Source: Bacteroidota bacterium
Lineage (GTDB): Bacteria; Bacteroidota; Bacteroidia; Chitinophagales; LD1
Length of the DNA stretch: 64,000 bases
NCBI GenBank assembly: GCA_026391075.1
Contig: JAPLES010000005.1
Coordinates: 4,533-68,532, forward strand
Direction of reading: 5' to 3'
Shown: piece after piece, positions 1 through 60,926 of the stretch
Layout: each line of letters begins with the position of its first letter
Numbering within the stretch: position 1 is the first letter of the stretch
Position numbers and translations under genes: made by a program
Notes under the pieces: model-generated
Databases searched by the model: none
What the model was told of the DNA's origin: nothing
What the model saw: the letters and a program-made list of their open reading frames with translations, nothing else

Positions 1-3000
1 TAAAGATACGGTTCCTTTCTTCTCTTTCACCTTTCCGTTCAAATAAACTCCCTCTAAATAGTAAGTGTAAACTCCCGGATTCTGAATCACTCCTTTATAA
101 GTTCCATCCCAACCTAACCACTGATTTTGCGAATCAAAAACCTTTTCTCCCCAGCGGTTAAAGATTTTCAAATTTGCTTTTGCCAATCCCGAACCATACA
201 CAGTAAAGACGTCATTGTTGCCGTCTCCGTTGGGTGAAAATGCATTCGGCACAAAAATATCATCACCATTCCCTACATAGACGGTAACTGTTTGCGAAAC
301 GCTGCAATCATGCAAATAATTTACGACTAAATTATAAAGTGTATGTGTGTAAGGCGAAGCCACCACCGAAGAAGACTCACCACAATTCAATCCTGTGATA
401 GGCGACCACGAATAAAAATTGATATCGGCAGCGTTGTAACCACTCACATTCGAAACTAGTGTGATAGACTTTCCTAAGTCAATCACACTATCCTGCGGCA
501 AAATAGTTAACGTTGGTTTCACCGGCTCATAAACAAACACAATGGTATCTTTCATACAACCTTGTCCGTCCTTAATATAGAGATGGTAAGTTCCTGCACT
601 TAAATTTTCAAACAACTCACCCGACTGAAAATTAATTCCATCGGTTGAATAAGTATAAGCCACAGGAATTCCCGGTGTGCCGCCCGTTCCTTCAACGTGA
701 ATTGAAGCATCTGAATATTGCGGGCACGAAGCAGAATCAATCTTAAGTAGTGCAATATCAATCAGCGGTGGTGCTGTGAAACTTGTATTGAGAATCGTAT
801 CGCAACCATTGTTATCAGCAACAGTTACAGTATAAACTCCAGGAGCCAAATTGCTGATGATTGGTGTAATAGCACTATTGTTCCAAACAAATCCTATTGG
901 CGGAGTTCCGCCATTTACACTTGCTTCTACAGAACCATCCTTTGCATTCGCACAACTTATTTCATGCTTATTAATTAACTGTGCATTGAGCGAAGGAGGA
1001 TTAGTAAGCGTAACACTTCCTTGTGCCGCGCAAAGATTTACATCCTGCACCACTACATCGTATAATCCTGCAACAAGATTTGTTATCGTGCTGTTATCAT
1101 TCGCTCCCGGTATAACTGACCAATCATAAACATAGCCAGGTGTTCCACCGTTAGCAATAACCGTTGCAGTTCCTGTGGCATCGCCTGTGCAAAGCGGGTC
1201 GGTGTGCGTGAAAGAAATAGTTACTGCTGTTGGTTCAGAAATAGTTGCGGTAGTTGTTGCGGTGCAATTTTTTGAATCGGTTACAGTCACCAAATAATTT
1301 CCGGCAACAACACCATTCAAATCTTCGGTAGTAGCTAAGTTGCTCCATGCATACGTATAAGTTACAGTTCCTCCTGCCGCAGTAACATCAATAGCTCCGT
1401 TCGTTCCTCCATTGCAAATTTCATTCGTTACAGAAGTTACACTCACCGTCAATTGACTTGGTTCTGTTATAACAAACGAAGTAGTTGCGGTGCAGGCATT
1501 CAAATCTGTAACGGTTACCGACTGATTATTTGCAGCAAATCCCGAAGCAGGATTTGTAGTAGCTGCAATATTACTCCAGGCATAAGTATAACCCGGAGTT
1601 CCTCCGTTCACAGTCGCTGTTGCACTTCCGTCATTTCCACCAAAACACGAAACGTTTGTAGAAGCAGAAATCGAGACAGTAAGTAATGGCGGCTCAATAG
1701 CTGTCCACGAAGATTGTGCGGTGCAGCTGTTTGCATCTGTTGCGGTAACGGTATAAGTTCCAGGCCCGAGATTCGTGTTTGGATTTACAGCACCACCAAT
1801 ATTCCAATTATAAGCAAACGCTCCTGTGCCGCCACTCGCTGTTGCAAGAACACTTCCATTGTTCGCGCCAAAGCAAGTGATATTAAATGTGTCAAGCACA
1901 ATCGAAATTTGTGTTGGCTCAGTAATGTTTATGTTTCCCGAAACAGTTACACCTGCGCTATCAGTTGCTGTTACTATATAAACTCCAGCGCAAAGATTGC
2001 TCACCACATTTCCGTTAGTTCCTTCGCTCCACACAAAAGAGTATGGAGAAATTCCACCTGTTGCAGAAACAGTTGATGTGCCGTTGCAATAACCAAAGCA
2101 AAGATTACTAACGGTAACAAAAGTCAACTGAATTGGTGGCGGGTCGGTAACAACAGCGGTGTCAAAAAGGCAACATCCATTTGCATCGCACACGGTTACA
2201 TAATAAGTTCCGGCAAAAAGATTTTGAATAGTATCGTTTGTTGAACCTGTGCTCCAGCTATAAGTATAGTTGGGCGTTCCTCCATTGGCAATTACAAAAG
2301 CCCATCCTTCATTTCCTCCGTTCGTAATTGCATTGAATGAAAGTGTATTGATAACCAAACTGCTCGGCTGTGTAACACTTGCCGAACTTGTCGTTGTACA
2401 TCCCCGCGAATCAGTAACGGTCACTAAATAATTTCCAACACCAAGTCCGCTTATGGTAGCAGCATTTGGCTCTGAAGGACTCCATAAGTAAGAATAATTT
2501 GGAGCACCTCCGATAGGAGTAACAGTAATCATTCCGTTGTTAGAGCCGTTGCAGGTAATGTTTTGCGCCACCGAAATTGCAGTTAATTGAGATGGCACAC
2601 TCAACGTTGCAGCTGCAGTTCCCGAGCATCCTTGTGAATCGCTAATGCTTACCGTATAAGTTCCAGCTCCAAGATTTTGTATGGAATCAATAACAGGTCC
2701 ATTACTCCACGCATAATTAATTGGCGGAGTTCCGCCACCTGCTATGGCTACAATTTTCCCATCGCTTTGCCCGAAGCACGAAATCGAATCTATAATCAAA
2801 TTGATAGGAAGATTATTTCCGATAACCACATGCACGGTATCGTGAATCACACATGAACCTCCTGTAAGTGTCGCGAGATAATCGGTAGAAACATTTGGTG
2901 TAACAGAAAGCGTTGCGGAATTTCCTACAACTGAATTATTCGATAGATCGCGCCACTCATACACAAAATTATTTCCTGGTAGCGGGCTGCCCGTAGTGGT

Positions 3001-5682
3001 AGTGGTAAGCAGTAAATTAGGTGGCGTGCAGAAAAAAGTATCGTCAGGAAAAGCGTGAAATTGTACCGATGTATCTACATCTACATAAACAAAATCTTGG
3101 GTGTGGCATCCGTTGGCTGCGGTAACATCAACATGATAAATAACAGGCGTTTCAGGATGCGAAACGGGATTGTGAATAGTGGAAGGCACTGCTGCATTTA
3201 CACCAGAATTCGGGGTCCATGAAATTGGAAGGTTGTCAATATCAGTAACGCAAACAGTGAAAATTGTGTTGGGCCTTTTAGTAGAAGTAAGAGGAGTTCC
3301 AGTAACACCACACTGAGAAGTTGAACCTGCTGAATAGTAAACGGAATTAAAAGCAGTAGGAGTTACCCGCATTCGATTATTAAGAATTGGAGCACCTGCA
3401 GGATTTGTAAAACAGATATCAATGACCAAATTCGAAGTACCATCCCAGTCGTAAGGAAAATCAAGTTTATGAGTAATCCATCCATCAACAGTTCCAAGCA
3501 TTAATTTTTTCGGAGTAAATACGGTGACCAAATTTGGTTGCCATAAAAGTGGCGGACTTGCATTAGGTTCTACCGGCAACGAAGTGGCTTGCGTACATGA
3601 CATTTTAATTTCAAAATTCATTAAAGAGTCAATATTATTATTGGTGTGCACCATGTAAAAGGAAATACTATCAATGGCTCCGCCCGAGCCGATTTGCGCA
3701 ATCAATTCACTTTGCAAATACAAAAATTGATGTCGCGCACTGTTTTGGTAATGACCATAAATGGTTGGATATTGGGTGGGTGAATTGCTACTGAGCGTGG
3801 TACCCGTTCCAATTTGGCCTTGTACCACGTGACCTACGCATGGAGTATTACTAATGCCGCAACTTTGCGGATTTGCCACCACATTCAGATTTACTAAATC
3901 ACCGGGACACACAACTAATGGCTGTGCTTTCGCAACAATGTTTGGCCCCGCACCTGAAATATTTACTGTAAGCGAATCAGGATTTGTGCAACCATTATTG
4001 CCGGTGATATAACATTTGTATTGCGTGCTTCCGAGTGGACTTGCCACGGGGTTTGGAATAGTATCATTCGGCAAACCTGAAACAGGATCAAACAATCCTG
4101 CTGACGGCACCCACTGAAAAGTATATGGGGCATAAAGATTATCGGTAGTTGCATTTAAATTTACCTGACCGTTCAAACAAACAGTGCCCCCTGGTCCTGC
4201 ATCATAAACAAACGGTGGCGCAGCATTTACAAATACCGAATCGGTTCCGCAATCAGAAGTAAAATAATACATGGTTGGATTAACCGGAGAAACTGAAGGT
4301 GTGTAGCTCAAAGGATTTGAAACTGCATTAGGACCTACTGACGGTGTCCATGTAAAATTGGTTCCACCTGTTGCTGTCAATTGCACTGGCGTTCCGCAAA
4401 AAGTAAGACTTGCCGAAAGCACTTGCACTTTAGTAAACACACAAATGGAATAGGCACGAGTATATCTTCCGTTAATTGGGCAGTCGTTATTTTCTGCCGT
4501 TAAAATAAAATCGTGACAGCCGGTATCGCCCGGCAGAGGAGTCCAGGTAATGTGTGCGGTTACACTATCGCCCGTGCCTATCTGGGTCATTAGTGCTCCA
4601 GGTATAGCCGATGGAATACTATTGATATTACTGGTGAGCGTGAGGCTATGATTTGCGGGGTCATTACATTGTATATCAAAAGTAAGTGGTGTACCCGGGC
4701 AAACAATCACGTTCACCTGGCTCGCTTGAAAACCATTGGTAACATTTGAAATGCTATCGGCAAAAGGAATAGAAATAGTGCAAGGTAAAACAGCAACCTG
4801 CATATCGCGAATAGTAGTGCCTACCAAAACACCATTGCGGTATTCATTCACTTGTATGGCGAATACATCTACCTCCTGACTGGGGCAGGTATAACTTATT
4901 TGCCCATTGGACGAATCAAATTGAAAACTGTTTGGAGGTGTGGTGCTCATGGGTTGATTGGCCGACCAAATTCCGGTAAAAGCAAGCGGACTGTATCCCG
5001 CATTTAAAGGATTAATAAGCGTATAGGAAAGTGAATCTCCATCTATATCTGCTGCACCATTGTTATAGGTTATTAAAGAGTTCAGGCAAACAAAGGGTAC
5101 AGGCAAAGTAGAAAACGCAACAGAGCTATTGCAATAGGGCAATCCGGTAATTGGGTCATTGGTATTATTAATTAAGGATTGAATTCCAAAACCAAGACCC
5201 CCCCCACCTGCGTTTGCAAGATTAGTGATAGCTGCGTTTCTGCAACAAGTATTTGTTCTCAAGTACCAGCTGTTGCAAGCATAGGGTAGAGAGATAGTTC
5301 CTTCATACGTGTACATTTGAACACCTGGATAGGTAGGTGGAGAAGCTGCTGGATTGCCAGGACAATTGGCAGGATTTGCGCAACAGCTTTGACCAATTTG
5401 CGATGGACATAACTCCGAAACTTCAGTAGGTCCAGCTATTAAATCAACATTGAAATTAGTAACCGAAAAACCCGCACAACCATCATAAAGTTCTACGCTG
5501 AAAGAATTGCCCGGGTCAATACCATAGCAATCGCGATAAATTTTTAGAGTTACAGTGTAGTTGTTATTTCCGGTGCATACATACGAAAGGTCTGACCCCA
5601 TTACATGCGATGCGCGACTTGCTATGGGATTCAACAACCAAACTAAAAGTGCAAGGGAAATTATTTTGTAGAAATGCTTCAA
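1..5682 (-). CDS. Giant secreted adhesin-like protein with a Cys-rich N-terminal region, at least 10 tandem SprB-type repeats and a T9SS type B (gliding-motility-associated, CHU_C-like) C-terminal sorting domain. The 3' end runs off the window, so the last few codons are missing.
   Basis: Absent from the ORF track because no stop falls in the window. My own minus-strand translation (codon first bases at coordinates divisible by 3) is open for 1894 codons. If a stop interrupted it, the track would list a fragment, and it does not. An in-frame TGA lies at 5784-5782, and the first start-type codon after it is TTG at 5682. The N-terminus (M)KHFYKIISLALLVWLLNPIASRASHV looks like a signal peptide and is followed by MGSDLSYVCTGNNNYTVTLKIYRDCYG. 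The C-terminus reads FVPNAFSPNGDGNNDVFTVYG..KIFNRWGEKVF..GWDGTYKG..GVYTYYLEG..KGTVSL, which matches the type B sorting domain pattern. Confidence 0.85.
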   Translation of the reverse strand, partial: MKHFYKIISLALLVWLLNPIASRASHVMGSDLSYVCTGNNNYTVTLKIYRDCYGIDPGNSFSVELYDGCAGFSVTNFNVDLIAGPTEVSELCPSQIGQSCCANPANCPGNPAASPPTYPGVQMYTYEGTISLPYACNSWYLRTNTCCRNAAITNLANAGGGGLGFGIQSLINNTNDPITGLPYCNSSVAFSTLPVPFVCLNSLITYNNGAADIDGDSLSYTLINPLNAGYSPLAFTGIWSANQPMSTTPPNSFQFDSSNGQISYTCPSQEVDVFAIQVNEYRNGVLVGTTIRDMQVAVLPCTISIPFADSISNVTNGFQASQVNVIVCPGTPLTFDIQCNDPANHSLTLTSNINSIPSAIPGALMTQIGTGDSVTAHITWTPLPGDTGCHDFILTAENNDCPINGRYTRAYSICVFTKVQVLSASLTFCGTPVQLTATGGTNFTWTPSVGPNAVSNPLSYTPSVSPVNPTMYYFTSDCGTDSVFVNAAPPFVYDAGPGGTVCLNGQVNLNATTDNLYAPYTFQWVPSAGLFDPVSGLPNDTIPNPVASPLGSTQYKCYITGNNGCTNPDSLTVNISGAGPNIVAKAQPLVVCPGDLVNLNVVANPQSCGISNTPCVGHVVQGQIGTGTTLSSNSPTQYPTIYGHYQNSARHQFLYLQSELIAQIGSGGAIDSISFYMVHTNNNIDSLMNFEIKMSCTQATSLPVEPNASPPLLWQPNLVTVFTPKKLMLGTVDGWITHKLDFPYDWDGTSNLVIDICFTNPAGAPILNNRMRVTPTAFNSVYYSAGSTSQCGVTGTPLTSTKRPNTIFTVCVTDIDNLPISWTPNSGVNAAVPSTIHNPVSHPETPVIYHVDVTAANGCHTQDFVYVDVDTSVQFHAFPDDTFFCTPPNLLLTTTTTGSPLPGNNFVYEWRDLSNNSVVGNSATLSVTPNVSTDYLATLTGGSCVIHDTVHVVIGNNLPINLIIDSISCFGQSDGKIVAIAGGGTPPINYAWSNGPVIDSIQNLGAGTYTVSISDSQGCSGTAAATLSVPSQLTAISVAQNITCNGSNNGMITVTPIGGAPNYSYLWSPSEPNAATISGLGVGNYLVTVTDSRGCTTTSSASVTQPSSLVINTLSFNAITNGGNEGWAFVIANGGTPNYTYSWSTGSTNDTIQNLFAGTYYVTVCDANGCCLFDTAVVTDPPPIQLTFVTVSNLCFGYCNGTSTVSATGGISPYSFVWSEGTNGNVVSNLCAGVYIVTATDSAGVTVSGNINITEPTQISIVLDTFNITCFGANNGSVLATASGGTGAFAYNWNIGGAVNPNTNLGPGTYTVTATDANSCTAQSSWTAIEPPLLTVSISASTNVSCFGGNDGSATATVNGGTPGYTYAWSNIAATTNPASGFAANNQSVTVTDLNACTATTSFVITEPSQLTVSVTSVTNEICNGGTNGAIDVTAAGGTVTYTYAWSNLATTEDLNGVVAGNYLVTVTDSKNCTATTTATISEPTAVTISFTHTDPLCTGDATGTATVIANGGTPGYVYDWSVIPGANDNSTITNLVAGLYDVVVQDVNLCAAQGSVTLTNPPSLNAQLINKHEISCANAKDGSVEASVNGGTPPIGFVWNNSAITPIISNLAPGVYTVTVADNNGCDTILNTSFTAPPLIDIALLKIDSASCPQYSDASIHVEGTGGTPGIPVAYTYSTDGINFQSGELFENLSAGTYHLYIKDGQGCMKDTIVFVYEPVKPTLTILPQDSVIDLGKSITLVSNVSGYNAADINFYSWSPITGLNCGESSSVVASPYTHTLYNLVVNYLHDCSVSQTVTVYVGNGDDIFVPNAFSPNGDGNNDVFTVYGSGLAKANLKIFNRWGEKVFDSQNQWLGWDGTYKGVIQNPGVYTYYLEGVYLNGKVKEKKGTVSL
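545..2830 (-). repeat. Tandem array of about 10 SprB-type repeat units of roughly 76-80 aa (about 230 nt) inside the adhesin gene
   Basis: Each translated unit carries C-x-G-x2-[DN]-G...GG-[TA]-P-x-Y-x-[YF]-x-W...G-x-Y-x-V-x-V-x-D. Examples: NVSCFGGNDGSATATVNGGTPGYTYAWSN..QSVTVTDLNAC, NITCNGSNNGMITVTPIGGAPNYSYLWSP..YLVTVTDSRGC, SISCFGQSDGKIVAIAGGGTPPINYAWSN..YTVSISDSQGC. The units have diverged at the DNA level. Confidence 0.8.
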
Positions 5683-13461: not shown

Positions 13462-14259
13462 TCAGATTTTTTCAAAAAGATTTTTTTCGACCCATCCCAC
13501 TTTGCCATCGGCTAAACGGATTTTATTCCAGTTGCCTACATGGTCAAGAATTTGGAATTTAATTCCCTCATGAATAGTGAAGAGGTCGGTGCCGTTGGCA
13601 TCTGGGGCGCTTTTTACGTTTACGTTTTCTGTAAGCAAAATAGCTTCGCATGAATTTTCTTCGGCATTACTTTGTTTAATGGCAAGCGAAACAGAGGTAA
13701 TAGAAAGGAGCAGAAACAAGATGCCAAGAAATAAAACGAATCCTTTTCTGGCAACGAAAATATAAACAGCAAACACTATCAACGCCACCCATACAAACCC
13801 AAGCGCAAAAACTCCCCAACCCTTTGATGATTGTGATGTGGTGAAATTGTTCCAGTTAGAAACAATAGCCATTTGCGGAACGGGAATTAGTTTGTCAACT
13901 ACTTTCAGTTGTGCAATTTTTAAATTGTGTGTAATGTCTTCATCTTCCGGAGCGAGTTTATGTGCGCGCTCAAAGTTCAGAATGGTTTTGCCGGTATTGT
14001 TCAACTTGAAATAACAATTGCCTAGGTTGTAATAAACTTCGGCTGTGCGATAACCCTGCGAAATAATTTTTCCGTAAGAAGCCTGCGCTTGTTCAAATTG
14101 ATTGGCTTTGTATTGTGCCGAAGCAGTTCTGTAAAGTTCGTTTGCGCTTTGTGCGGAGACATTAGACGTTAGACACAAGACTATAGACAATACAAAAAGC
14201 AGAGATGCCTTTCTGTAGAGTGATAACTGTTGTTTGTCAACTTTTATTTCCTGTCTCAT
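13462..14259 (-). CDS. batE: BatE-like protein (signal peptide, TPR repeats, TM segment, C-terminal SH3-like domain)
   Basis: TPR-like segments YRTASAQYKANQFEQAQ..YYNLGNCYFKLNN, hydrophobic segments, and the C-terminus GNWNKIRLADGKVGWVEKNLF (bacterial SH3-like). It lies directly downstream of the batD-like gene. Confidence 0.7.
   Translation of the reverse strand: MRQEIKVDKQQLSLYRKASLLFVLSIVLCLTSNVSAQSANELYRTASAQYKANQFEQAQASYGKIISQGYRTAEVYYNLGNCYFKLNNTGKTILNFERAHKLAPEDEDITHNLKIAQLKVVDKLIPVPQMAIVSNWNNFTTSQSSKGWGVFALGFVWVALIVFAVYIFVARKGFVLFLGILFLLLSITSVSLAIKQSNAEENSCEAILLTENVNVKSAPDANGTDLFTIHEGIKFQILDHVGNWNKIRLADGKVGWVEKNLFEKI
14156..14190. repeat. Heptad array, AGAC flavour (5 units), inside the batE signal-peptide codons
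   Basis: The + strand reads GAGACAT TAGACGT TAGACAC AAGACTA TAGACAA. Positions 14163-14188 are the inverted partner of 14260-14285. Confidence 0.85.
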
Positions 14260-14291
14260 GTCTATTATCTTGTGTCTATCGTCTAAACTCT
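14250..14291. repeat. Heptad array, GTCT flavour (6 units), filling the batD-batE spacer and the first batE codons
   Basis: The + strand reads CCTGTCT CATGTCT ATTATCT TGTGTCT ATCGTCT AAACTCT. It runs from the batD stop (14290-14292) across the batE ATG (14257-14259). Confidence 0.85.
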
Positions 14292-16161
14292 ATTTCACTT
14301 CATCTTCCAAATCTGCCATCAAATTCATAGCGGCATCATAGTTTTGTTTCATCTCTCCACCTTCCCCTACCGGTGAATACAAAGCGAGTTCGCAGGTGCT
14401 CAACAATACTTTCAGTTTCGAAATGGTTTCAGCCTTTGCGTTTCTAGCAAGCAACTTTTCTTCTACATTATCTTTCGAAAGTTCAGCCATGTCAATATTC
14501 AACTTGTCGCCTAAGTAACCCCAGATAGCGCGCGAAACTTCATCGTAGAAATTTTTCTTGTCACTCTTTGCCAAATGTTTTGCAGCAATGCTCAATCTCT
14601 TCTTTGCCAACTTGAGTGCTCTTCTTCTCTTAGTTCCTATTACATCAGCAGCAAGGTCTTCGTTTCTTCTTCTCGCCACCACCAAACCTATGAACAATAA
14701 AAACGGAGCCGAATACATCGCCACAAATCCGGCCGAGCCAAAAAATGAATTCCCTTTTTTGAATTCAGGTGTTGTTGTTTTAATGTAGCGAATATCCTGA
14801 CCAACCAATGAAACTTCTTCCTTGCTTACACCTGTCGCTCCGTTATTTGCATTTACATTTTTAGATGGTTCGCCAGTCACCTTCACTGTAAACTCAGGAG
14901 AGTTTATGCTAAAATATTTTGCGCTTGCTGGTTCGAACCATGAAAATGTTTTCGATTCAATTTTAAAATCACCGGGCTGGCGCGGAATGATAAGGTAGTC
15001 ATACTGTTTCGTTCCACTCATGCCACCGGCACTATTGCTGATGTTTTCTTTTGTTTTAGGGTCATACACTTCAAACTCCACAGGAAATTTAAGTGCAGGA
15101 GCATCTACAAATTTCAAATTTCCTGTGCCCGAAATTTTCAATGTGTATGTAATAGGCTCATCGGTTTTTGTTTCTTTGTTTGAAAGCGAAGATTCAAACT
15201 TGTAACTACCTACGGCTCCCGAAAAATCTGCGGGCTTGCCGTTTTCAGGAAGTTCTTTCACGTTCACTACTGCCGAAGAAGTTTTTAAAGTCATGGGCAC
15301 TTGCTGTATTTGCCCGAAAAAACTGCCAAAGAAATTTCTTTGATTGGAACGTACCTGCACTTGCACCACTGTTGAAAGTTCACATGAAGCCACCGGCAAA
15401 GCACCGGCACGTTGCGGATACAAATTGTATTTCAGAATTTCAATCGTGTTGTATTGCTTGCCGTTTATAGTTTCTATGGTTGGTCTGCGCTTAGGGTCAA
15501 GCTCCACTTCCTGACTCCAGTAGCCATCAAAAGCAGGGGCTTTTGTTACGTTGAAACCCGAAAGATTTTGGCGGAAATAAAGTTTGTATGCCGCGGTAAG
15601 CATTTCGCCTTTGTAAACCGAATTTTTATCTACCACTAATTTCATGAATACCTCATCCTTCAATTGTTTTTCTACATCGGCATTGTTGGTTTGCGGCTCT
15701 TCTTCTTCCTCTTGTCCTTGATTAAAGAAAGGATCATCAAACGGGTCAAAAGGATTTTGTTGTCTTCGTTGTTGTTGCTGTTGTTGTGCCACAGCTGCAG
15801 TTACTTCAATAGAAATTTCGTTGCTTTCCATAGTAACTCCACTCACTACAATACTCGCTTTGCCTATTTTAAACGCGCCTTGATTTTTTGGACGAAGAAT
15901 ATAATTGTAAGTAACACTTTGCGTTACGTTGCCATTTACCCATTGCCTACTAGTGGAAGTATTTGGCCCACCCAACACTTGGAAATCTGAAACAGCAGGC
16001 GGTTTCAAATTTGTTCCATTTCCGTTTTCAATAGTTAAGCTAAGTTGAAAATTAGAATTTAGCGGAACTGATTTAGGAGCAGAGGCATAAAATTTTGCTT
16101 GCGCAGAAGACGATAGACAATAGACGATAGACAATAGAAACACCAATGCAAAAATTCGCAT
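14290..16161 (-). CDS. batD: BatD-like oxygen-tolerance protein
   Basis: Signal peptide [22 protein letters not shown]. The N-terminal repeated Ig-like modules read F.A....V..N..F.L...I....-..P..SDFQVLGGP..S.S. A Gln/Glu-rich linker, a C-terminal TM segment and a basic patch (ARRRNEDL) follow. Start set to ATG 16161; the long ORF reaches 16242. Confidence 0.75.
   Translation of the reverse strand: MRIFALVFLLSIVYCLSSSAQAKFYASAPKSVPLNSNFQLSLTIENGNGTNLKPPAVSDFQVLGGPNTSTSRQWVNGNVTQSVTYNYILRPKNQGAFKIGKASIVVSGVTMESNEISIEVTAAVAQQQQQQRRQQNPFDPFDDPFFNQGQEEEEEPQTNNADVEKQLKDEVFMKLVVDKNSVYKGEMLTAAYKLYFRQNLSGFNVTKAPAFDGYWSQEVELDPKRRPTIETINGKQYNTIEILKYNLYPQRAGALPVASCELSTVVQVQVRSNQRNFFGSFFGQIQQVPMTLKTSSAVVNVKELPENGKPADFSGAVGSYKFESSLSNKETKTDEPITYTLKISGTGNLKFVDAPALKFPVEFEVYDPKTKENISNSAGGMSGTKQYDYLIIPRQPGDFKIESKTFSWFEPASAKYFSINSPEFTVKVTGEPSKNVNANNGATGVSKEEVSLVGQDIRYIKTTTPEFKKGNSFFGSAGFVAMYSAPFLLFIGLVVARRRNEDLAADVIGTKRRRALKLAKKRLSIAAKHLAKSDKKNFYDEVSRAIWGYLGDKLNIDMAELSKDNVEEKLLARNAKAETISKLKVLLSTCELALYSPVGEGGEMKQNYDAAMNLMADLEDEVK
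16108..16142. repeat. Heptad array, AGAC flavour, containing an exact 14-nt tandem duplication
   Basis: The + strand reads AGACGAT AGACAAT AGACGAT AGACAAT AGAAACA. GACGATAGACAATA occurs twice in tandem (16109-16122 and 16123-16136). This stretch encodes LSIVYCLSS of the BatD signal peptide. Confidence 0.9.
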
Positions 16162-16344
16162 ACCTGAAAATTCAAAAATGGATTTGCGCCACTTCGAATT
16201 TTGGACTTCGCACTTCAAACTTGTAACTATTCTCTTTCTCATTGGGCTCGCGAATATAATATGAACTTACGCCCGATAGCTACGATGGGTTAGCCCGTTA
16301 AATTTTTTTAGCAAAGAAGCATTGAGATTGAGCGAAGCTTGTCT

Positions 16345-22636: not shown

Positions 22637-23293
22637 TCAATTAAAAAATGCCCCCTGCTGCAAAAAAGGATTGGTTCTTCTTTCTACTCCTATAAATGTG
22701 TCATCCCCGTGACCGCAAAAAACTTTGACATCATCGGGCATGGTCATTAGTTTTTGCATAATTGAATTTAGCAGCACTTCGCCACTTGCTCCGGGTAAAT
22801 CGAAGCGTCCAACACTTCCCTGAAACAAAACATCCCCGCATACCACAATTCTTTCTGCTTCATTATAAAAAGACAAACTGCCTGGCGAATGCCCCGGAGT
22901 GAAAAGAGTTTTCAAAACCGTTTTGCCGAAATTTATTTCATCGCCTTCTTTCAACCAATGTTTTGGTTTTGGCGATGGCTCAACGCTAAAGTTAAAGAAG
23001 CTTTGAAAATCGAGCGCTTGATTCATCACCTTCCATTCTATTTCATGAAACTCGGGTAGCAGATTATATTTTTCGCAGAGAAACTTATTGCCGCCAAAAT
23101 GGTCGATGTGGCAATGTGTGTTCAGCAATTTCACTGGCTTTAGATGGTTTGATTCAATCGTTTGCACTAATTGATTTTGTTCAGATTCATTTGAACAACC
23201 TGCATCAATAATTACACATTCGTTGGATTCATCGGCCAGCATAAAAGTATTTTCCTGAAACGCATTAAAAGTGTGTTTGAATATCCGCAGCAT
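22637..23293 (-). CDS. MBL-fold metallo-hydrolase (glyoxalase II-like)
   Basis: NTHCHIDHFGG (HxHxDH), TPGHSPGS, and CGHGD near the C-terminus. Length 218 aa. Confidence 0.8.
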   Translation of the reverse strand: MLRIFKHTFNAFQENTFMLADESNECVIIDAGCSNESEQNQLVQTIESNHLKPVKLLNTHCHIDHFGGNKFLCEKYNLLPEFHEIEWKVMNQALDFQSFFNFSVEPSPKPKHWLKEGDEINFGKTVLKTLFTPGHSPGSLSFYNEAERIVVCGDVLFQGSVGRFDLPGASGEVLLNSIMQKLMTMPDDVKVFCGHGDDTFIGVERRTNPFLQQGAFFN

Positions 23294-23330
23294 TATTTAT
23301 TTTTTAAGTTTGAAGGCGTGAATATAAAAC

Positions 23331-23365
23331 AGACGACAGATGTTAGACGTTAGATAGAAGATAAA
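23331..23365. repeat. Heptad array, AGAY flavour (5 units), in the 5' leader of the 1168-aa OMP gene
   Basis: The + strand reads AGACGAC AGATGTT AGACGTT AGATAGA AGATAAA. Positions 23337-23364 are complementary to 23464-23491. Confidence 0.85.
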
Positions 23366-23396
23366 TGCAAAAACAAAACCTTCCGCTTGGCTTTTA

Positions 23397-26300
23397 ATGA
23401 TTTATTTCAAGAACAAAATATTTCTCTTTAATACTTTCAATTCCCGTTTCTGGTTGTTGTCTATTGTCTATTGTCTATCGTCTACCATCTGCTCAGCTCA
23501 GGGCAACGAAAAATTTGGACAAAATCGCGTTCAGTATAAAGACTTCAGTTTTCAGTATTACGAGAGCGACAACTTCATAACTTACTTTTACATGGGCGGG
23601 CAGGACATTGCCAAGTATGTTATCAAATCTGCTGAAGACAATGCCGATGAAATTTCCAAGCTTCTTGATTTTCATTACAAGCGCAAAATTGACATCATTG
23701 TTTATAACAACATCAACGAACTCAATCAAACCAATATTGGTATTTACGACCAAGGGCAAAACCCGGGCGGCACCATAAAAATCCCCGACAGTAAATTGTT
23801 TGTTTACTTCAATGGCGACCATCGCCATCTCGACAAACAAATTCGCGAAGGCATTGCAAAAATTTATGTCAGCAAAATGATATTGGGAAGTTCTGTAGGC
23901 GAAGTTTTATCCAACGCGGTTTTGCTCAACCTGCCCGACTGGTATAAAGTAGGTTTGGTAAAATACATTGGCGAACCTTGGAACAGCGATATGGAAGACC
24001 GCCTTCGCGATGGTATCATGAGTGGCCGATTTACGCGTTTGCGCAAACTTGAAACCGATGAATCTATTTTTGTGGGGCATTCCATTTGGCATTACCTAGA
24101 AGAGGTGCACGGCAAAAGCGCGGTGAGCAATATTCTTTATCTCACACGAGTAAACCGAAGTGTTGACAACGGATTTATGTTTGTGTTGGGCACCAATCTT
24201 TCAGAAACGTTGCAACAGTGGTATGAATATTATCTCAATCGTTTTAGCAGCGAAGCCAAACTAACCTCTATGCCCGATGACAGTTCGTTATTAAAGGCAA
24301 AAATCAAAAAGAACATTGATTACTACCAAACCAAACTAAGTGCCGATGGCAAATTTGTGGCATATGCGAGCAATGATATGGGTAGATATAAAGTTCATCT
24401 ACTGAATACGGAAACGCAAAAGAGCATCGTGATTTTTAGAGGAGGATGGAGAACCAATACCATTTTTACCGACCAATCAATCCCTTTGCTCGCTTGGGAA
24501 CCTTCGGGTAAAAAACTGGCGATTATCAGTGATAAACGTTCCAATATTTTCATTCGGTTCTATGATACCGAAACAAAAAAAATGGAGAAAAACCCCGTGC
24601 GCAAATTTCAAAAAGTGGTGAGCTTTAGTTATGTAGATTCAAAACAATTGGTGATGAGCGCCATTCAAAACGGGCAAACCGATATTTATCTTTACAACGT
24701 TGCATCAACCACTACCCGAAAACTGACAGACGATTATTTTGATGATTTGTATCCAGCCTATATTGAAGCGGACAGTGTGCGCGGAATTATGTTTGCCAGC
24801 AATCGTGAAGATGATACACTACGACCATTGCGTTACGAATCGCAACGGGTCAACAATCGTCAACTCGATTTATTTTTTTATGATTTAAATGCCAGTCAGA
24901 ATTTTCTGTATCGCGTTACTTCTACTCCATTTGCTGATGAATCCTTTCCGCAAAATTTTAGTGAAAAAGAATTTTGTTTTTTAAGCGAAGAGAACGGAGT
25001 GCGCAATAGGCACATTGGTCATTTTGAAACTGTGTTTGATCACAATGAAAAAAATATTCGTTTCGTTTCGAAAGAAACCGGAGAGCTTGATTCTGTTCAG
25101 GTGCCGGCAAATATTTCTGCTACCAGCATGCTTGATCCTGCAAACGATCAACTGAAAGATACTTCCATTGCTAAGGTTTATAAACTGGGTGGTGCTACCG
25201 CGGCTTATACGAACTATACGCACAACATACGCGAGCAAACAATAATTTCGCAAAAAAATCTTGCGCTTGATGTTTTTAAAATCAAAAACAAAATTCAATT
25301 GCGCAAATACAATTTGCAATCAACTGGTACTACCAGCGAACCTGTTTTTGATTACATGATACAGTTGCAGAAAAAAGAAATTGAAGCTACCAAAGCCCAA
25401 GAAAAAAAAGAAGAACCTGCTGTAAAATCCTTTGTAGAAAAATACGATTCGCTAAAAGTGAATCGAGGTAATCGTCAGTTCGATTTTCAAAGCGAATTTG
25501 ATTACGGCATAAAACTTTTCGATTGGGATTCGGCTTCTGCGTTGAAATTAAAAAGCACTAACGAAGGTTATGTGTTTCGCTTTTCGCGCGTGCGCCCATA
25601 CTTTATTCGCTTTATGGTTGACAAAGTAATTGCTCAAGTAGATAACAGCATTATGGTTACGCGCTATCAGCCATTTGACCCTTACAATCCGCAGTTCAAT
25701 ACACAACCGGTGAGTTTTATGTTCAAGTTTGGCATTACTGATTTGCTCGAAAACCATAAACTATATGGCGGATTTGCTTTGCCATTTAGCGGCATCAATA
25801 GCAATTCGCAATATTTTATAACCTACGAAAATTTGACGAAGCGGCTCGATACTAAATTCACCTTCTTCAGAAAATCGTATGGCAGCACGGCTACGGGCAG
25901 GCTTCCGTTTACGAATACGATTTTACCTGCAGATTATTCTTTGCCGTATAGCATTAAGACAAACTATGCCGAGTTGCAATTCAATTATGCGCTCGATGTG
26001 TTGAGCAGTTTACGTTTTAGTTTTTCGTTTAGAAACGACAAAGTAGTTTACAAATCAATCGATACCTTTTCATTACATCTGCCTAGCATTTCTGATAACT
26101 GGTTGTTCTTTCGGGCTGAATATGTTTTCGACAATTGCATGGAAGTGGCTACCAACATTCGCTATGGAACGCGCTTCAAAGTTTTTGGCGAAGTGCATAA
26201 AGAATTTCCTACCAAAAACAAAAATGTTTCAGACCGATTTGATTTTCCGGTGGTACAGTTCAACAATAAAGTGCTGGGTGTGTTTGGATTTGATTTGCGC

Positions 26301-26903
26301 CACTACCAAAAAGTTTACAAACAAATTATTTGGGCAAGTCGTTTAGCGGCTGGTGTTTCCTTCGGCAATGCAAAAATGATTTACTACTTGGGTGGAATTG
26401 ACAACTGGATTACCGGGCCGGGTTTCGATAAGTTTGACCGAACCACACCCATTAATCTCAATAACAATTACGCGTTTCAAACGCTCGCTACTCCGCTGCG
26501 TGGCTTTAAACAGAATGCCCGTAATGGCGATAAGTTCATTGTGTTTAATACCGAATTGCGCATTCCCATTTTTGCCGCACTCATTCGCGCACCCATACGA
26601 TCCGAGTTGATTCGAAATTTTCAAATCCTCGCCTTCTTTGATGCAGGCACTGCATGGGAAGGTGCTTCGCCTTGGTCGGGCAGCAATCCGCTTTACAACG
26701 AATCGGTGCCCAATGTTCCCAATAATCCTTCGGTTATTGTACACGTTCAAAAATACAAAACACCAATAGCCATGGGCTTTGGCCCGGGCTTGCGCACTTC
26801 TATTCTTGGTTATTTTATTCGCTTCGATACTGCATGGGGTTACGACACAGGAGAAGTGAGTGAGAAGCCAAAATATTATTTTTCGTTTGGTTTAGACTTT
26901 TAA
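23397..26903 (+). CDS. Large outer-membrane protein with N-terminal TolB-like (PD40/WD40-like) beta-propeller repeats and a C-terminal Omp85/surface-antigen-type beta-barrel
   Basis: Signal peptide ..[18 protein letters not shown]40-like repeats are [23 protein letters not shown] and [24 protein letters not shown]. The C-terminal region has [37 protein letters not shown] and the terminal beta-signal ..YYFSFGLDF. The stop lies 2 nt before the lptB ATG. Confidence 0.65.
23456..23490. repeat. Heptad array, GTCT flavour (5 units), encoding the signal-peptide core of the 1168-aa protein
   Basis: The + strand reads GTTGTCT ATTGTCT ATTGTCT ATCGTCT ACCATCT, which translates as [12 protein letters not shown]. 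Confidence 0.9.
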
Positions 26904-36100: not shown

Positions 36101-36130
36101 GCCCTCGCAAGAAATTGTGAGGGCTTTTTT
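36101..36130 (+). terminator. Rho-independent terminator after rplY
   Basis: GCCCTCGCA (36101-36109) pairs with TGTGAGGGC (36116-36124) around a 6-nt loop, followed by TTTTTT (36125-36130). Confidence 0.7.
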
Positions 36131-36133
36131 ATT

Positions 36134-36161
36134 TACTATTGCCTATTCACTATTCACTTTA
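36134..36161. repeat. Heptad array, CACTATT flavour (4 units), directly upstream of the pth start
   Basis: The + strand reads TACTATT GCCTATT CACTATT CACTTTA, then GACA-ATG (ATG at 36166). Confidence 0.8.
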
Positions 36162-36165
36162 GACA

Positions 36166-51290: not shown

Positions 51291-51301
51291 GGGAGGGAAT
51301 T

Positions 51302-51336
51302 AATAGTGAATAGTAAATAGTGAATAGTAACAGACG
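51302..51336. repeat. Heptad array, TAGTRAA flavour, with an exact 14-nt tandem duplication directly upstream of the membrane-protein start
   Basis: The + strand reads AATAGTG AATAGTA AATAGTG AATAGTA ACAGACG. AATAGTGAATAGTA occurs twice in tandem (51302-51315 and 51316-51329). On the gene-sense strand this is TACTATT CACTATT repeated twice, ending 11 nt before TTG 51290. Confidence 0.9.
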
Positions 51337-54115: not shown

Positions 54116-54373
54116 GGTTCAAAAATTTTGTCCGAAGGATCCCTTCGGGAAAACCGCGAATATAAAAATTGCAAGCCGCTGTTTACTAAGCACAATAACC
54201 AATCAGTTTATTCGTCTTTACCACAAGCAGCTTGTATTTTTTTAGCAATAAATATTCAAATTGCTATTGCCTTTTTTGCTTTCTAATATTACCTTGCTTG
54301 TATATCGTAAAGAATTTTATTTTCGCGTTCCGTAAAAAACGGGACGCTCTTACCAAATAAACCCTGATTTATA

Positions 54374-57321: not shown

Positions 57322-59313
57322 TTAGTCTTTCATTTTAATCAGCAATGTATTTGCCTCTACAAAAGATTTCTCTGCCACAAAAACTTCTTCCACTTCACCA
57401 TCGGTGTGCGCTTCAATAGTGGTTTCCATTTTCATTGAACTCATTACGAGCAATCCTTTGCCGCTTTGAATTTTGTCTCCTGCTTTCACTAACACCTTCA
57501 CAATTTCTCCCGGCATTGGTGCTATGTAACCACCTTTCACAATTTCAGTTCCAGGTTCAACAAAACGCGGAGCTTCTTTCAATTTAAATGTTCCAGCCGA
57601 TGGATGCTGTATAAAAATGTCGCGATTATTTTGCGCAATAAAAAATGATTGACGATGATTTTCTATAGAGAAATTAACCTGGTTATTTCTAACACTCACC
57701 AACTCTACAGAATAGTTTTTGCTATTGTTCGAAACTTCAAACTGATTGTTTTGCTTGTAACGGTATTCCAGTTTTATTTTCTGCTCAGCAAATTCAATTT
57801 CAAAAATTTGTGCCGAGTAAAAAATATTTCTCCAGCCATTCAACAAATGCGAAGCTTTTTCGTTTTGCTTTCGCTTTGACCAATCAAACAAAAGTGCAGC
57901 AATAGCCATTTCGTTTATTTCGCTTTCAGTCGGAGTTTTTTTGTAAGAAGAGAAATCGCGCTCAATCAATTTGGTATCGAAACTTCCGTCTATAAAATTT
58001 TTATGTTGAAGAAGTTCCTTCTGAAAATCTTTGTTTGTAGTAACACCCAATACAGCATATTTATCTAAGCCCAACAACATTTTCTGAATGGCTTCTGTTC
58101 TGTCTTTACCCGTTGCAATTACTTTAGCCACCATCGAATCGTAATGAACAGGAATTTCAGAACCGGTTTGCATTCCGCTATCAAAGCGCAAACCTTTTAA
58201 GCAAGGCTCGCTGTAAAAAAGTATTTCCCCAGTAGCAGGAAAGAAATTATTCTCCGCGTCTTCTGCACAAATTCTGCACTCAATAGAATGTCCTTGCTGT
58301 TTAATTTCATCTTGCTTTACCGAAAGCGGTTTGCCTTGCGCCACGTCAATTTGCATACGAACCAAATCCAATCCCGTAGTTTCTTCAGTAACCGGATGTT
58401 CTACTTGCAAGCGGGTGTTTACTTCTAAAAAGAAAAATGATTTTTCTTCTGCGCTATACAAAAACTCAACCGTACCTGCTCCTGTATATTTTACGGCAAA
58501 AGCTAATTGCACTGCGGCTTTTCCCATTTGCACACGCAACTCATTGGTAAGCGAAGGCGATGGACTTTCTTCAATTACTTTTTGGTAACGCCTTTGCATG
58601 GAGCATTCGCGCTCAAACAAATGAACATAGTTGCCGTGTACATCACCAAAAATTTGAATCTCGATATGCTTTGCCTTCGGAAAATATTTTTCAATCAAAA
58701 CAGTACTGTCACCAAAACTTTTTTCGGCTTCGCGTTTTGCAGCATCAATTGCCGCTTCGCTTTCTGCAGCAGAATTTACAATGCGCATTCCTTTTCCACC
58801 GCCACCAGCACTGGCTTTTATCAAAACAGGGAAACCGATTTTCTCTGCTTCTTTTTTTAATGTGGCAGTACTTTGGTCTTTACCATTATAACCGGGCACG
58901 GTTGGAACTTTCGCTTTTATCGCAATTTCTTTCGCACCAATTTTTGAACCCAATTGTGTAATTACATCAGCCGAAGGACCAATGAAAATAATTCCTTCAT
59001 CGGCAAAGCGTTTTGAAAACGTTGCGTTCTCTGAAAGAAAACCGTAGCCCGGGTGAATAGCATTTGCACCGGTTTGTTTAGCCGCAGCAATAATTTTATC
59101 CTGTACCAAATAACTTTCACCGGCTGCATTTCCTCCAATACAAATAGCCTCATCGGCTCGTTTTACAAACAGTGCATTTTTATCTGCATCGGAAAAAACA
59201 GCTACTGTTTTTATTCCCATTTCCGCTGCTGTGCGAAAAACACGAATAGCAATTTCGCCTCGGTTGGCAACTAATATTTTTTTGATTGTTTGCATTTGTC
59301 TATTGTCTAACAT
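57322..59313 (-). CDS. Acyl-CoA carboxylase alpha subunit (biotin carboxylase plus biotin carboxyl carrier domain; methylcrotonyl-CoA-carboxylase-like)
   Basis: [17 protein letters not shown]-grasp [26 protein letters not shown], and the C-terminal biotinylation motif [14 protein letters not shown]. The start could be the second ATG at 59295. Confidence 0.88.
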
Positions 59314-59336
59314 CTAATATCTGCTTCTTACATCCT
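59295..59336. repeat. Heptad array, GTCT/ATCT flavour (6 units), spanning the junction of the two carboxylase genes
   Basis: The + strand reads TTTGTCT ATTGTCT AACATCT AATATCT GCTTCTT ACATCCT. It covers the alpha-subunit start (59311-59313), the 14-nt spacer and the beta-subunit stop (59328-59330). Confidence 0.8.
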
Positions 59337-60926
59337 AAAAACTCCAAAGCCTTCGGCACCTTTAAATTCTGTTTGATGAATCACATCTAAACATAACTTC
59401 AAATAATTTCTGGTTTCGCGTGGGTCAATCACTCCATCATCCCAAAGTTGTCCGCTGGCATACCAAGCGTTGCTTTGTTTTTCAGCTTCTTTAACCATGT
59501 ACTCGGACATTGCTTTTCCTTGTTCTTCATCATATTGAATTCCCGATTTTTCTGCTGCCTGTCTGCCTATGGTTTGCATTACTCCTGCTAATTGGTCGGG
59601 ACCCATGACTGCAATTTTTGAATGAGGATAGCTGAAAAGAAATCTAGGTTTATAAGCGCGACCACACATGGCGTAATTGCCCGCGCCATAACTTGCTCCT
59701 GTAATAATGGTGATGGCAGGAACCGTAGAATTGCTCACCGCGTTAATCAATTTTGCTCCGTGCTTTATAATTCCTTCTTCTTCATATTTTTTTCCAACCA
59801 TAAAGCCGGTGATGTTTTGAAGAAATAAAAGCGGTGTATTATTTTGATTGCAAAGCTGAATGAAGTGTGCGCCTTTGTTTGCCGCTTCTGAAAACAAAAC
59901 TCCATTGTTGGCTATGATGCCTATTTGATGGCCATTAATTTTTGCATAACCCGTTACCAAGGTACTTCCATATGCAGGTTTAAATTCAGAGAAATCACTT
60001 CCATCAACTATTCGCGCAATTAATTCGCGCTGGTCGAAAGGAATGCGCACATCGGCAGAAACGACACCTAAGATTTCATCGTTGTCGTATTTTGGTTCTT
60101 GTATTTCTATCGTCTCTTGTCTATCGCCTATCGTTTGTTTTAAATTCGAAACAATTTCTCTTGCCAATCTTATTCCATCCATCTCATCTTCGGCCATGTA
60201 ATCAGAAACTCCCGAAACGGTGCTGTGCATTTTTGCTCCTCCCAAACTTTCTTCATCGGTAACTTCGTTGGTTGCCATTTTTACGAGTGGCGGACCGGCA
60301 AGAAAAACCTTGGCTTCGTTCTTCACCATGATGACGTAATCGCTCATACCAGGTATGTATGCACCACCAGCAGTGCTGCTTCCGAATACAATAGAGATGG
60401 TAGGAATTCCCAATTTGCTTCGTTGCGTAATGCCTCTGAAATTTGCTCCACCGTAATTAAAAATCTTTGCTTGTTCAGGTAGATTTGCTCCGGCACTTTC
60501 TACCATGTTTATCATGGGCAACTTATTTTCGGTGGCTATTTCGCCAATGCGCAAACCCTTTTGCAGGGTAGCATAATCAATAGCTCCGCCTTTAATCGTT
60601 CCCACGTTTGAATTGATCATGCACATTCTACCGCTTACAAAACCCATTCCTGCAACCACCGTTCCACCAGTGCCAAAACCATCGCCTCCCCATCCTGCAA
60701 AAGGACAAAGCTCCATGAAAGGAGAATCTACATCGAGGAGCATTTCAATTCTTTCGCGAGCTAAAAGGCGACCTGCTTTTTTAGTGCGCGCCAGATATTT
60801 TTCTTCGCCTTGAAAGAGTGCTTCTTTTTGTTTGGCTTCGAGCTCAACTATTTTCTCCTTCATCAAGGCTAAGTTGCGCTGATAGCTTTCGGAGTTGCGG
60901 TTTATTTTTGATTGAAATACTGACAT
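59328..60926 (-). CDS. Acyl-CoA carboxylase beta subunit (carboxyltransferase; methylcrotonyl-CoA-carboxylase-like)
   Basis: Two crotonase-like carboxyltransferase halves. Motifs include GRMCMINSNVGTIKGG, FGSSTAGGAYIPGMSD, NNGVLFSEAANKGAHFIQLC and GASYGAGNYAMCGRAY. Length 532 aa. Confidence 0.88.
   Translation of the reverse strand: MSVFQSKINRNSESYQRNLALMKEKIVELEAKQKEALFQGEEKYLARTKKAGRLLARERIEMLLDVDSPFMELCPFAGWGGDGFGTGGTVVAGMGFVSGRMCMINSNVGTIKGGAIDYATLQKGLRIGEIATENKLPMINMVESAGANLPEQAKIFNYGGANFRGITQRSKLGIPTISIVFGSSTAGGAYIPGMSDYVIMVKNEAKVFLAGPPLVKMATNEVTDEESLGGAKMHSTVSGVSDYMAEDEMDGIRLAREIVSNLKQTIGDRQETIEIQEPKYDNDEILGVVSADVRIPFDQRELIARIVDGSDFSEFKPAYGSTLVTGYAKINGHQIGIIANNGVLFSEAANKGAHFIQLCNQNNTPLLFLQNITGFMVGKKYEEEGIIKHGAKLINAVSNSTVPAITIITGASYGAGNYAMCGRAYKPRFLFSYPHSKIAVMGPDQLAGVMQTIGRQAAEKSGIQYDEEQGKAMSEYMVKEAEKQSNAWYASGQLWDDGVIDPRETRNYLKLCLDVIHQTEFKGAEGFGVFRM
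60102..60136. repeat. Heptad array, GTCT flavour (5 units), inside the inter-domain linker codons of the carboxyltransferase gene
   Basis: The + strand reads TATTTCT ATCGTCT CTTGTCT ATCGCCT ATCGTTT, which encodes KQTIGDRQETIEIQ on the minus strand. Confidence 0.7.

Follow-up and report, generated by a model that had tools for sequence, protein, structure and literature searches.

Opposite-orientation heptanucleotide arrays around the start codon of a secreted-protein gene in a Chitinophagales genome: possible fold-back attenuator or by-product of a dispersed repeat family

When an inverted repeat brackets a start codon, does it regulate the gene, or does it only record the spread of a simple repeat? 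The question is raised by a 64,000-nucleotide stretch of contig JAPLES010000005.1 (assembly GCA_026391075.1) from a Bacteroidota bacterium of the order Chitinophagales, hereafter the window, whose own numbering is used throughout. In it, the gene for a secreted protein of 1168 amino acids is preceded by a tandem array of 7-nt units, the 5' arm, and carries a complementary array, the 3' arm, among its signal-peptide codons. A first-pass annotation had described these arms together with a similar arrangement at batE, and had read the recurrence as an argument against coincidence. Our analysis confirms that the inverted repeat around the start of the 1168-aa gene is real and non-random. Both arms are very probably opposite-orientation copies of one dispersed heptad family, TAGACNN / NNGTCTA, and it is against this common origin that any regulatory role has to be weighed.

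The arms themselves hold up well. A repeat finder returned exactly the pair given by the first-pass annotation, 23337-23364 and 23464-23491, each 28 nt long, 79% complementary and 99 nt apart with the start codon in the loop between them, and our own recount agrees with its 22 Watson-Crick pairs, three G-U pairs and three mismatches. The 5' arm, said to lie about 33 nt upstream of ATG 23397, ends 32 nt before it and 1 nt before ATG 23366 of a short upstream open reading frame (uORF), and the 3' arm does encode the signal-peptide core (codons 23-32, (I)VYCLSSTI(C)). Five AGAYNNN units make up the upstream array, Tandem Repeats Finder describes 23457-23484 as TTGTCTA with a period of 7, 4.0 copies and 95% matches, and the repeat finder gave a second register, shifted by one heptad, in which 23331-23354 pairs with 23460-23483. 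Complementarity between leader and signal peptide reached 18.25, against 8.25 ± 1.16 in dinucleotide shuffles (z = 8.6). This gapless scoring with shuffles was adopted in place of RNAduplex energies because the latter were dominated by U-rich versus A-rich composition: cognate and non-cognate pairs from 25 orthologs did not differ (-32.0 vs. -31.6 kcal/mol). Folding against shuffled controls placed the stem in both the minimum free energy (MFE) structure and the centroid of the RNA (z = -2.58; 4 of 200 shuffles as good). When the whole window was scanned for inverted repeats spaced 20-280 nt apart, three loci stood above background, all at gene 5' ends: the 1168-aa locus, the batE locus and 31714-31750/31831-31867, with a weaker fourth at 61002-61025/61067-61090. 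Rfam gave no match at gathering thresholds in the whole window, and permissive matches in 23200-23600 were at chance level only (E > 5). As to the protein, it had been labelled an outer-membrane protein, an identity that we find unsupported: its sole domain signal is a weak match to a TolB-like beta-propeller, and an exact-protein lookup returned no identical record.

Where does the complementarity come from? Occurrences of GTCTA/TAGAC gather in six arrays in the window. Those in reverse orientation, which read NNGTCTA on the sense strand, are found in the signal peptides of BatD, BatE and the 1168-aa gene, and the forward ones (TAGACNN) in the batD-batE spacer, upstream of the 1168-aa gene and in the spacer before the ATG of a biotin-carboxylase (accC-like) gene. 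The signal-peptide array of the 1168-aa gene is identical to that of BatD at 26 of 27 nt (E = 4e-8), and the 5' arm, taken with the AAATGCAAA that follows it, shares about 83% identity over 35 nt with the accC spacer array, a match that alone is not significant. The 5' arm also has a 12-nt perfect match to the BatE signal peptide, and resembles the accC spacer array more than it resembles the complement of its own partner arm. The accC-like array, for its part, takes up the spacer that separates the carboxyltransferase gene from the biotin-carboxylase gene and runs up to the real ATG of the latter; over 14 nt it is perfectly complementary to the signal-peptide array of the 1168-aa gene, at a distance of 36 kb. 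Because the forward unit contains a TAG stop codon, it is confined to non-coding leaders; the reverse unit is open in all three frames, reading LSIVYCL, and its copies are therefore tolerated within open reading frames as hydrophobic signal-peptide cores. A gene that has both kinds of array, as do batE and the 1168-aa gene, thus automatically carries an inverted repeat around its start. The layout at batE, on the opposite strand, is indeed the same, and its recurrence is non-random as the first-pass annotation held, but the two loci are not two independently shaped hairpins, both being copies of one dispersed family.

All five forward arrays in the window stand immediately 5' of a start codon and are directed towards it. 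They include a second heptad family, TATTCAC (= CACTATT), whose array at 36130-36165 (+) ends at the ATG of the peptidyl-tRNA hydrolase gene (pth) and whose array at 51298-51334 (-) stops about 8 nt short of the TTG start codon of a DUF6427 gene. In the Chitinophagales DNA gathered for comparison by the time of the census, arrays with four copies of a 4-nt core numbered 34 at period 7 and 0-4 at the other periods from 5 to 12. Two other origins were considered along the way: a miniature inverted-repeat transposable element or mobile cassette was rejected, the BatE and 1168-gene loops being unrelated and target-site duplications not visible, and the idea that the 5' arm arose solely by local template switching from the gene's own signal peptide lost weight, given the match to the BatE signal peptide and the closer resemblance to the accC spacer array noted above. 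A degenerate GTCT-type array (TCTATCG TCTCTTG TCTATCG CCTATCG) was also seen at 60106-60133 (+), inside the carboxyltransferase gene and opposite to its coding strand.

BatE is the better-supported case. Its stem is found in the MFE structure (z = -6.7) and recurs in the MFE structures of seven orthologs. At about 71% amino acid identity, 37-39 of the 42 nt around the upstream arm are identical, and third-base identity rises from 0.55-0.68 elsewhere in the gene to 0.77-0.93 in the signal-peptide arm; the loop sequence that separates the arms is divergent. The conserved elements are the AGAC and GTCT cores at 7-nt spacing, and the linker bases vary. By these comparisons, the BatE arms are clearly under purifying selection. 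The spacer that holds the 5' arm is intra-operon and presumably co-transcribed, and a regulatory role is plausible at this locus. One relative that is 85% identical (L035) has lost most of the upstream arm, and inverted repeats built of other units occur in L032 (octamer TTCCGAAT) and L034 (TTGAC).

Other short repeats accompany the Bat genes. The BatE loop has a fast-evolving heptad array of its own (TTGGCAG, GGGCAGT, GGCAATC), coding for the n-region, in L039 (486-515), L040 (2522-2550) and L043. T-rich heptad arrays (CTCTTTG, TTGCTTT, TCTTTGT, at least four copies each) lie inside the batE homologues of L040 (3026), L043 (1120) and L045 (1115), about 0.5 kb from the start and beyond the signal peptide, where they would encode hydrophobic residues. 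Over the window (16160-16215, -), L032 (8019-8120), the batD starts of L034 and L035 and L037 (143-175), the n-region and leader of BatD are likewise made up of short repeats, namely GAAGTSC heptads, AAGTCCG (four copies), CAGAAAT (three copies) and ATTTTCGA octamers (three to four copies), the last containing the palindrome TTCGAA. The same octamers, coding for FISEF-NFRI, are present in the BatE homologue of L032 and in the 1168-gene homologue of L010.

Invariant BatE cores at an exact 7-nt spacing, with linkers that vary, could also mean that the arrays are binding platforms on which one protein monomer sits on each heptad, occupancy and not pairing of the arms being the function. The candidate would be a cold-shock-domain or S1-type protein on RNA, or a ribbon-helix-helix repressor of the omega type on DNA. 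The heptamers preferred by CspB and CspE are GTCTTT-like, and omega-type repressors bind direct and inverted heptads. CspB has been described as binding heptamer repeats, each heptamer being bound by a single protein (Morgan, 2007 and Sachs, 2012, as cited in PMC4679880). The orphan arrays that lack a partner at accC, BatD, pth and DUF6427 would fit such platforms, as would the position of the 5' arm of the 1168-aa gene just upstream of a -35-like element described below. We nevertheless consider this reading improbable. No candidate binding protein was identified, and the units differ between genomes and genes (GTCTA, GTCAA, CTGTTGC, TTCCGAAT), therefore no single binding specificity fits them all; moreover, linker bases are complementary above chance in several loci, with 19 contiguous pairs in L040.

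For the 1168-aa gene, the signals between the arms bear directly on whether the 5' arm is transcribed. We compared 28 orthologous loci from Chitinophagales metagenome-assembled genomes, in which W denotes the locus of the window. In 21 of them a bipartite motif, (G/T)NAAAAC-N16-CGTT (GCAAAAC-N16-CGTT), stands between the arms, with a spacer of exactly 16 nt and variable sequence, and with the ATG 12-20 nt after the C of CGT. Promoters of the extracytoplasmic function (ECF) class have AAC at -35 and CGT at -10 with spacers of 14-17 bp, and a sigma-V example reads GCAAAC and CGTC (PMC5758882); the motif thus looks like a putative ECF-sigma promoter. It is missing in L029, where the homologue of the 1168-aa gene follows a gene on the same strand, and L007, the counterpart of L029, has a degenerate match only (AAAC-N17-CTT). 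If the motif is a promoter, the start site would lie downstream of 23364 and the 5' arm, upstream of the -35 element, would not be transcribed from it. The arm occupies the hypervariable spacer between this motif and the TATATTCA/G box of the divergent upstream neighbour, a metallo-beta-lactamase-fold gene (22637-23293, -). Upstream of the arm there is a second candidate, a perfect match to the Bacteroidetes -7 box (TAAGTTTG) that also falls within the leader of the divergent gene, and a longer transcript that includes the 5' arm is therefore possible. The uORF ATG is present in a minority of the orthologs and the 10-codon uORF in W and L001; L020 (~3000-3020) carries ATA where the uORF would begin, and at its gene start 11 nt are duplicated in tandem, ATGATTTACCA followed by ATGATTTATTT.

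Additional promoter-like sequences were encountered in the window. A TATATTCGCG motif lies 10-50 nt upstream of the metallo-beta-lactamase-fold gene, serS (~54157-54165) and batD (~16251-16260), in the sense orientation each time, and may represent a variant -7 box of the Bacteroidetes type. AAC-N17-CGTAAG is found upstream of batD in three of the four genomes compared (W, L034, L037), and L035 has TGCAAG for CGTAAG. TAnnTTTG was tried as a general promoter predictor and dropped (no intergenic enrichment), and ATGCAAA or GCAAAA-N-GYKTTT was rejected as a motif enriched across the window (no enrichment).

The reading that we put first, while holding it only tentatively, is that of a fold-back attenuator, active solely on transcripts that include both arms. 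Bacteroidota belong to a phylum that initiates on unstructured A-rich leaders and not through Shine-Dalgarno pairing, and structure-tuned translation initiation has been described in Bacteroidetes (PMC6847099). An RNA with both arrays would fold its purine-rich, otherwise unstructured leader back onto the signal-peptide codons, which would close the initiation region into a stem-loop and attenuate translation. At batE, the fixed, conserved and intra-operon arrangement could couple BatE translation to the ribosomes that finish BatD. At the 1168-aa gene, fold-back would be limited to longer transcripts from the upstream sigma-A-like box, because the 5' arm lies upstream of the ECF-type promoter-like motif; its effect would be comparable to the inhibition of IS10 read-through transcripts.

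A number of observations weigh against such an attenuator, beginning with the orthologs. Comparative alignment does not bear out the 5' arm as a conserved leader element: the inverted repeat between leader and signal peptide is significant in only four of the 28 loci, namely W (z = 8.6), L001 (z = 6.8), L010 (z = 5.0; arms AATTCGGAAATTCG) and L024 (z = 10.2; TTGAC type), which together represent three arm sequences. A metagenome scan for close relatives yielded three loci. The proteins of L001 and L020 are 94% and 93% identical to that of W. Between W and L001 the arms differ by one single-nucleotide polymorphism, from C to T, which is synonymous and leaves G-U in place of G-C; this observation counts in favour of the attenuator. 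L020, close as it is, lacks 19 nt of the 5' arm and has no inverted repeat; TGGTTAT units replace two GTCTA units of W there, and the array length is unchanged. The arms thus change together and yet are evolutionarily labile. A heptadic signal-peptide core is found in most orthologs, in units that vary (GTCTT, CTGTTGC, TTTTGCC, GTTCT, TGTCTGC), and also at loci that have no upstream arm (L007, L029, L017), and across the 28 orthologs the conserved blocks are separated by a spacer whose length and sequence are hypervariable. In favour of the attenuator, again, analogous inverted repeats with different arm sequences are found in the orthologs L010 and L024, as at the BatE loci L032 and L034. To judge by these comparisons, the arrangement at the 1168-aa gene is young and variable.

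The remaining difficulties concern pairing and transcription. ATG 23397 is unpaired within the 99-nt loop and is not itself sequestered. At the 1168-aa locus the antisense strand folds as well as the sense strand (z = -2.3 vs. -2.6, both modest energies), and the ratio of G-U to A-C mismatches, our test of RNA versus DNA, is 27:17 over all loci and not significant. At BatE, RNAalifold on seven loci settled on a register displaced by one heptad from the one that is best for single sequences, without covariation; in the corrected register the signal was weak, 80% of cells being paired and five pairs double-changed, a value reached by 41 of 500 shuffles. Covariation at BatE is not significant because the AGAC/GTCT cores are invariant. 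The ECF-like motif between the arms suggests that the 5' arm of the 1168-aa gene lies outside the main mRNA, and the upstream promoter is uncertain in turn, as TAnnTTTG is not enriched in the intergenic DNA of the whole window. Finally, in a 3 x 3 matrix of forward and reverse arrays, cis pairs scored no better than trans pairs: the 5' arm of the 1168-aa gene reached 18.2 with its own signal peptide, 19.5 with that of BatE and 18.0 with that of BatD, and the accC array reached 21.8 with the 1168-gene signal peptide. The complementarity is therefore a property of the family and no evidence of locus-specific co-evolution.

The same matrix could be taken to indicate a trans antisense network, in which forward arrays on the accC spacer, the batD-batE spacer or an unseen small RNA (sRNA) pair with the signal-peptide arrays of envelope proteins. 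Trans duplexes are indeed as strong as or stronger than those in cis; the 14-nt perfect duplex of the accC array with the 1168-gene signal peptide amounts to -37.9 kcal/mol, and the BatE arm matches the BatD signal peptide over 13 perfect nt. However, we saw no free-standing sRNA gene with such an array in the window, where Rfam likewise gave none, and where a cis arm is present, pairing within the molecule would prevail over pairing in trans. We regard such a network as very unlikely.

A more serious competitor is that the inverted repeat is an incidental by-product with no regulatory role, which we hold to be quite possible, if short of probable. Slippage, ectopic conversion or template switching would account for the spread and growth of the arrays. 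The 5' arm would lie in spacer DNA free of constraint, flanked by two divergent promoters, and would not share a transcript with the 3' arm, and the complementarity would stem solely from the common family of both arrays. The hypervariable spacer, the scarcity of significant repeats among the orthologs together with the 19-nt indel of L020, the parity of cis and trans pairing and the ECF-like motif between the arms are all as expected under this explanation. Heptanucleotide repeats are, furthermore, the commonest long simple-sequence repeats in many bacteria and have been ascribed to polymerase slippage (Mrazek, 2007, as cited in PMC4679880), and template switching is able to create hairpin arms (PMC8794818). 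A purely incidental origin sits less easily with the finding that 2 of about 55 genes combine a forward with a reverse array at one start, where a rough estimate gives a chance expectation of about 0.1, and with the direction of every forward array towards a start codon. Expanded ortholog spacers are also repeatedly complementary to their own signal-peptide or n-region, in unrelated sequences (14 + 13 perfect in L010), and purifying selection on the BatE arms is clear. For the 1168-aa locus the likelihoods of a regulatory role and of an incidental origin are close, and we consider an RNA-level regulatory role at this particular gene doubtful.

Two switches at the DNA level were weighed as well, and no evidence supports either. 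In a partial intergenic inverton, a recombinase would flip 23337-23491 and take both the start codon and the promoter-like motif away from the gene. Bacteroidota commonly carry invertons, the repeat flanks both elements, and the inverted allele would be without an in-frame start and therefore OFF. Nevertheless, the GCAAAAC...CGTT...ATG segment has the same orientation in 28 of the 28 assembled loci, a second orientation not being found among them, and no recombinase, integrase, resolvase or transposase domain was detected in open reading frames of at least 150 aa in the 64-kb window. The longest perfect complement between the arms, which are 79% matched, is 6 nt, spacers are only 41-99 bp long, and the four inverted repeats in the window have unrelated arms. 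We give inversion almost no credence. Slipped-strand phase variation, in which the signal-peptide array would gain or lose a 7-nt unit, shifting the frame and turning the protein off, is highly unlikely too. Its unit is not a multiple of three and lies within signal-peptide codons, and the boundary between heptad types has shifted between W and L020; yet there are only three perfect copies, the arrays of W, L001 and L020 are of equal length with the frame intact, no frame-shifting variant was found among them and all fetched orthologs are in frame. It would also leave the upstream arm unexplained.

The fold-back attenuator could itself be part of something broader. It is conceivable, although we see it as a long shot, that genome-specific families of 7-8-nt repeats form a modular code at the 5' ends of Chitinophagales genes. 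Forward arrays would then serve in translation initiation or as elements of the leader, reverse arrays would be a recurrent source of new and replacement cores for signal peptides and transmembrane segments, and forward/reverse pairs would act as fold-back attenuators or as targets of a heptad-reading factor, for instance a cold-shock-domain protein. Envelope proteins, BatD, BatE and the TolB-like protein among them, might be co-regulated as a set in this manner.

The features discussed above are collected in Table 1.

Table 1. Positions in the window of the heptad arrays and of the start-region elements of the 1168-aa gene.
Feature	Position	Strand	Remark
BatE 3' arm, reverse GTCT array encoding signal-peptide core VLSIVLCLTSNV	14159..14196	-	
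BatE 5' arm, forward TAGACNN array filling the batD-batE spacer and overlapping ATG 14259	14252..14289	-	
BatD signal-peptide reverse array, TTGTCTA TCGTCTA x2, no forward partner in cis	16107..16141	-	
TAAGTTTG, perfect Bacteroidetes -7 box consensus (TAnnTTTG), upstream of the 5' arm	23305..23312	+	conserved in orthologs
TATATTCAC, -7-like box of the divergent metallo-beta-lactamase-fold gene	23320..23328	-	predicted
5' arm array, AGACGAC AGATGTT AGACGTT AGATAGA AGATAA (TAGACNN family, forward)	23331..23364	+	
99-nt loop with short uORF, promoter-like motif, ATG 23397 and n-region codons	23365..23463	+	
uORF MQKQNLPLGF*, stop overlapping the main start (TAATG)	23366..23398	+	
GCAAAAAC-N16-CTTTT, window copy of GCAAAAC-N16-CGTT, -10 part degenerate	23367..23395	+	ECF-sigma promoter-like
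1168-aa secreted protein gene	23397..26903	+	weak TolB-like beta-propeller match
Reverse heptad array, TGGTTGT, TTGTCTA x3, TCGTCTA, CCATCTG, encoding the signal-peptide h-region	23450..23491	+	
Orphan forward array AGATATT AGATGTT AGACAAT AGACAAA, up to the ATG of the biotin-carboxylase (accC-like) gene	59296..59323	-	

The two other inverted repeats of the window deserve a separate description. That at 31714-31750/31831-31867 is the strongest spaced inverted repeat of the window, with 37-nt arms, 31 Watson-Crick pairs, an 80-nt spacer and a fold z of -3.0. It is not heptadic and is located in the start region of a gene for an alpha/beta-hydrolase (GTG 31815 or ATG 31866); its 3' arm ends at ATG 31866, and its loop contains ATGCAAAAATCAGAAATCCGTTTGCGTTTG, resembling the loop of the 1168-gene locus. 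In the other, GGACGAG-type heptad arms pair with CCCTCG repeats (60998-61027/61065-61094) in the divergent intergenic region before a LysE-type gene (ATG 61134), and here too the loop begins with ATGCAAATAC.

Heptamer repeats at start codons are already known from the literature, and the present case is not a new category. If the paired arrays do regulate, they would provide a simple and quickly evolvable form of translational control in a phylum without Shine-Dalgarno pairing, in which the stem would grow in a single step when a 7-nt unit is duplicated on both sides of the start codon. Independently of any function, heptanucleotide repeats make up the signal-peptide cores of several unrelated secreted proteins, these arrays are nearly identical between genes (26 of 27 nt), and their synonymous sites are unusually conserved. 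All this has a bearing on how dispersed microsatellite-like repeats shape coding sequence, and on the automated prediction of gene starts and signal peptides in these genomes. It also calls for caution, since a start-bracketing inverted repeat can arise merely from two orientations of one repeat family flanking a start codon.

How do these arrays compare with known systems? Read-through transcripts of the IS10 transposase gene are subject to fold-back inhibition, and operons use translational-coupling hairpins. As in these systems, a 5' arm, a (promoter), a start codon and a 3' arm in the coding region follow one another, and only transcripts that start upstream of the 5' arm could fold; at BatE, the 5' arm comes directly after the stop codon of the upstream gene. 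Unlike in these systems, the main ATG of the 1168-aa gene is in a 99-nt loop and not in the stem, and the arms are heptad arrays that are not conserved among the orthologs of this gene. As in Bacteroidota invertons, the inverted repeat flanks a promoter-like motif at a gene for a surface or secreted protein, whereas a single orientation in 28 assemblies, the lack of a recombinase nearby, perfect matches of at most 6 nt and a very short spacer set it apart. The CTCTT repeats of Neisseria opa genes form a simple-sequence contingency locus in signal-peptide codons. Here too the unit is not a multiple of three and lies inside the signal-peptide coding region, but there are three perfect units only, no frame-shifted relatives and a paired, complementary upstream array. 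The omega protein of pSM19035 is a ribbon-helix-helix repressor with heptad operator arrays, which share with those of the window their 7-bp units, in direct and inverted orientation near a promoter; in contrast, the arrays described here are 99 bp apart, one of them lies in a coding region, and no such repressor was identified.

The closest parallel is with the TAACTGA-type heptamer direct repeats found directly upstream of start codons in Beggiatoaceae, cyanobacteria and a few Bacteroidetes (MacGregor, 2015, PMC4679880), whose function is unknown and for which a post-transcriptional regulator (S1, Csp or CsrA) has been suggested (PMC4679880). Both consist of tandem forward 7-nt units; those of the TAACTGA type end a few nucleotides before a start codon, and the arrays of BatE, accC and pth end at the real start, whereas that of the 1168-aa gene ends 1 nt before a nonconserved uORF ATG and 32 nt before its own. 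Both have stop codons in the forward unit and a reverse unit that reads as a hydrophobic heptapeptide (LSVISYQ for TCAGTTA, LSIVYCL for TTGTCTA here), and both show indels in 7-nt steps. The unit is a different one, TAGACNN/AGAYNNN with other units in the same lineage, so that we are dealing with the same kind of element but a different repeat. Unlike TAACTGA repeats, of which only one inverted set was reported (PMC4679880), the reverse copies described here are systematically signal-peptide cores, and forward and reverse copies bracket one and the same start codon as a long-range inverted repeat.

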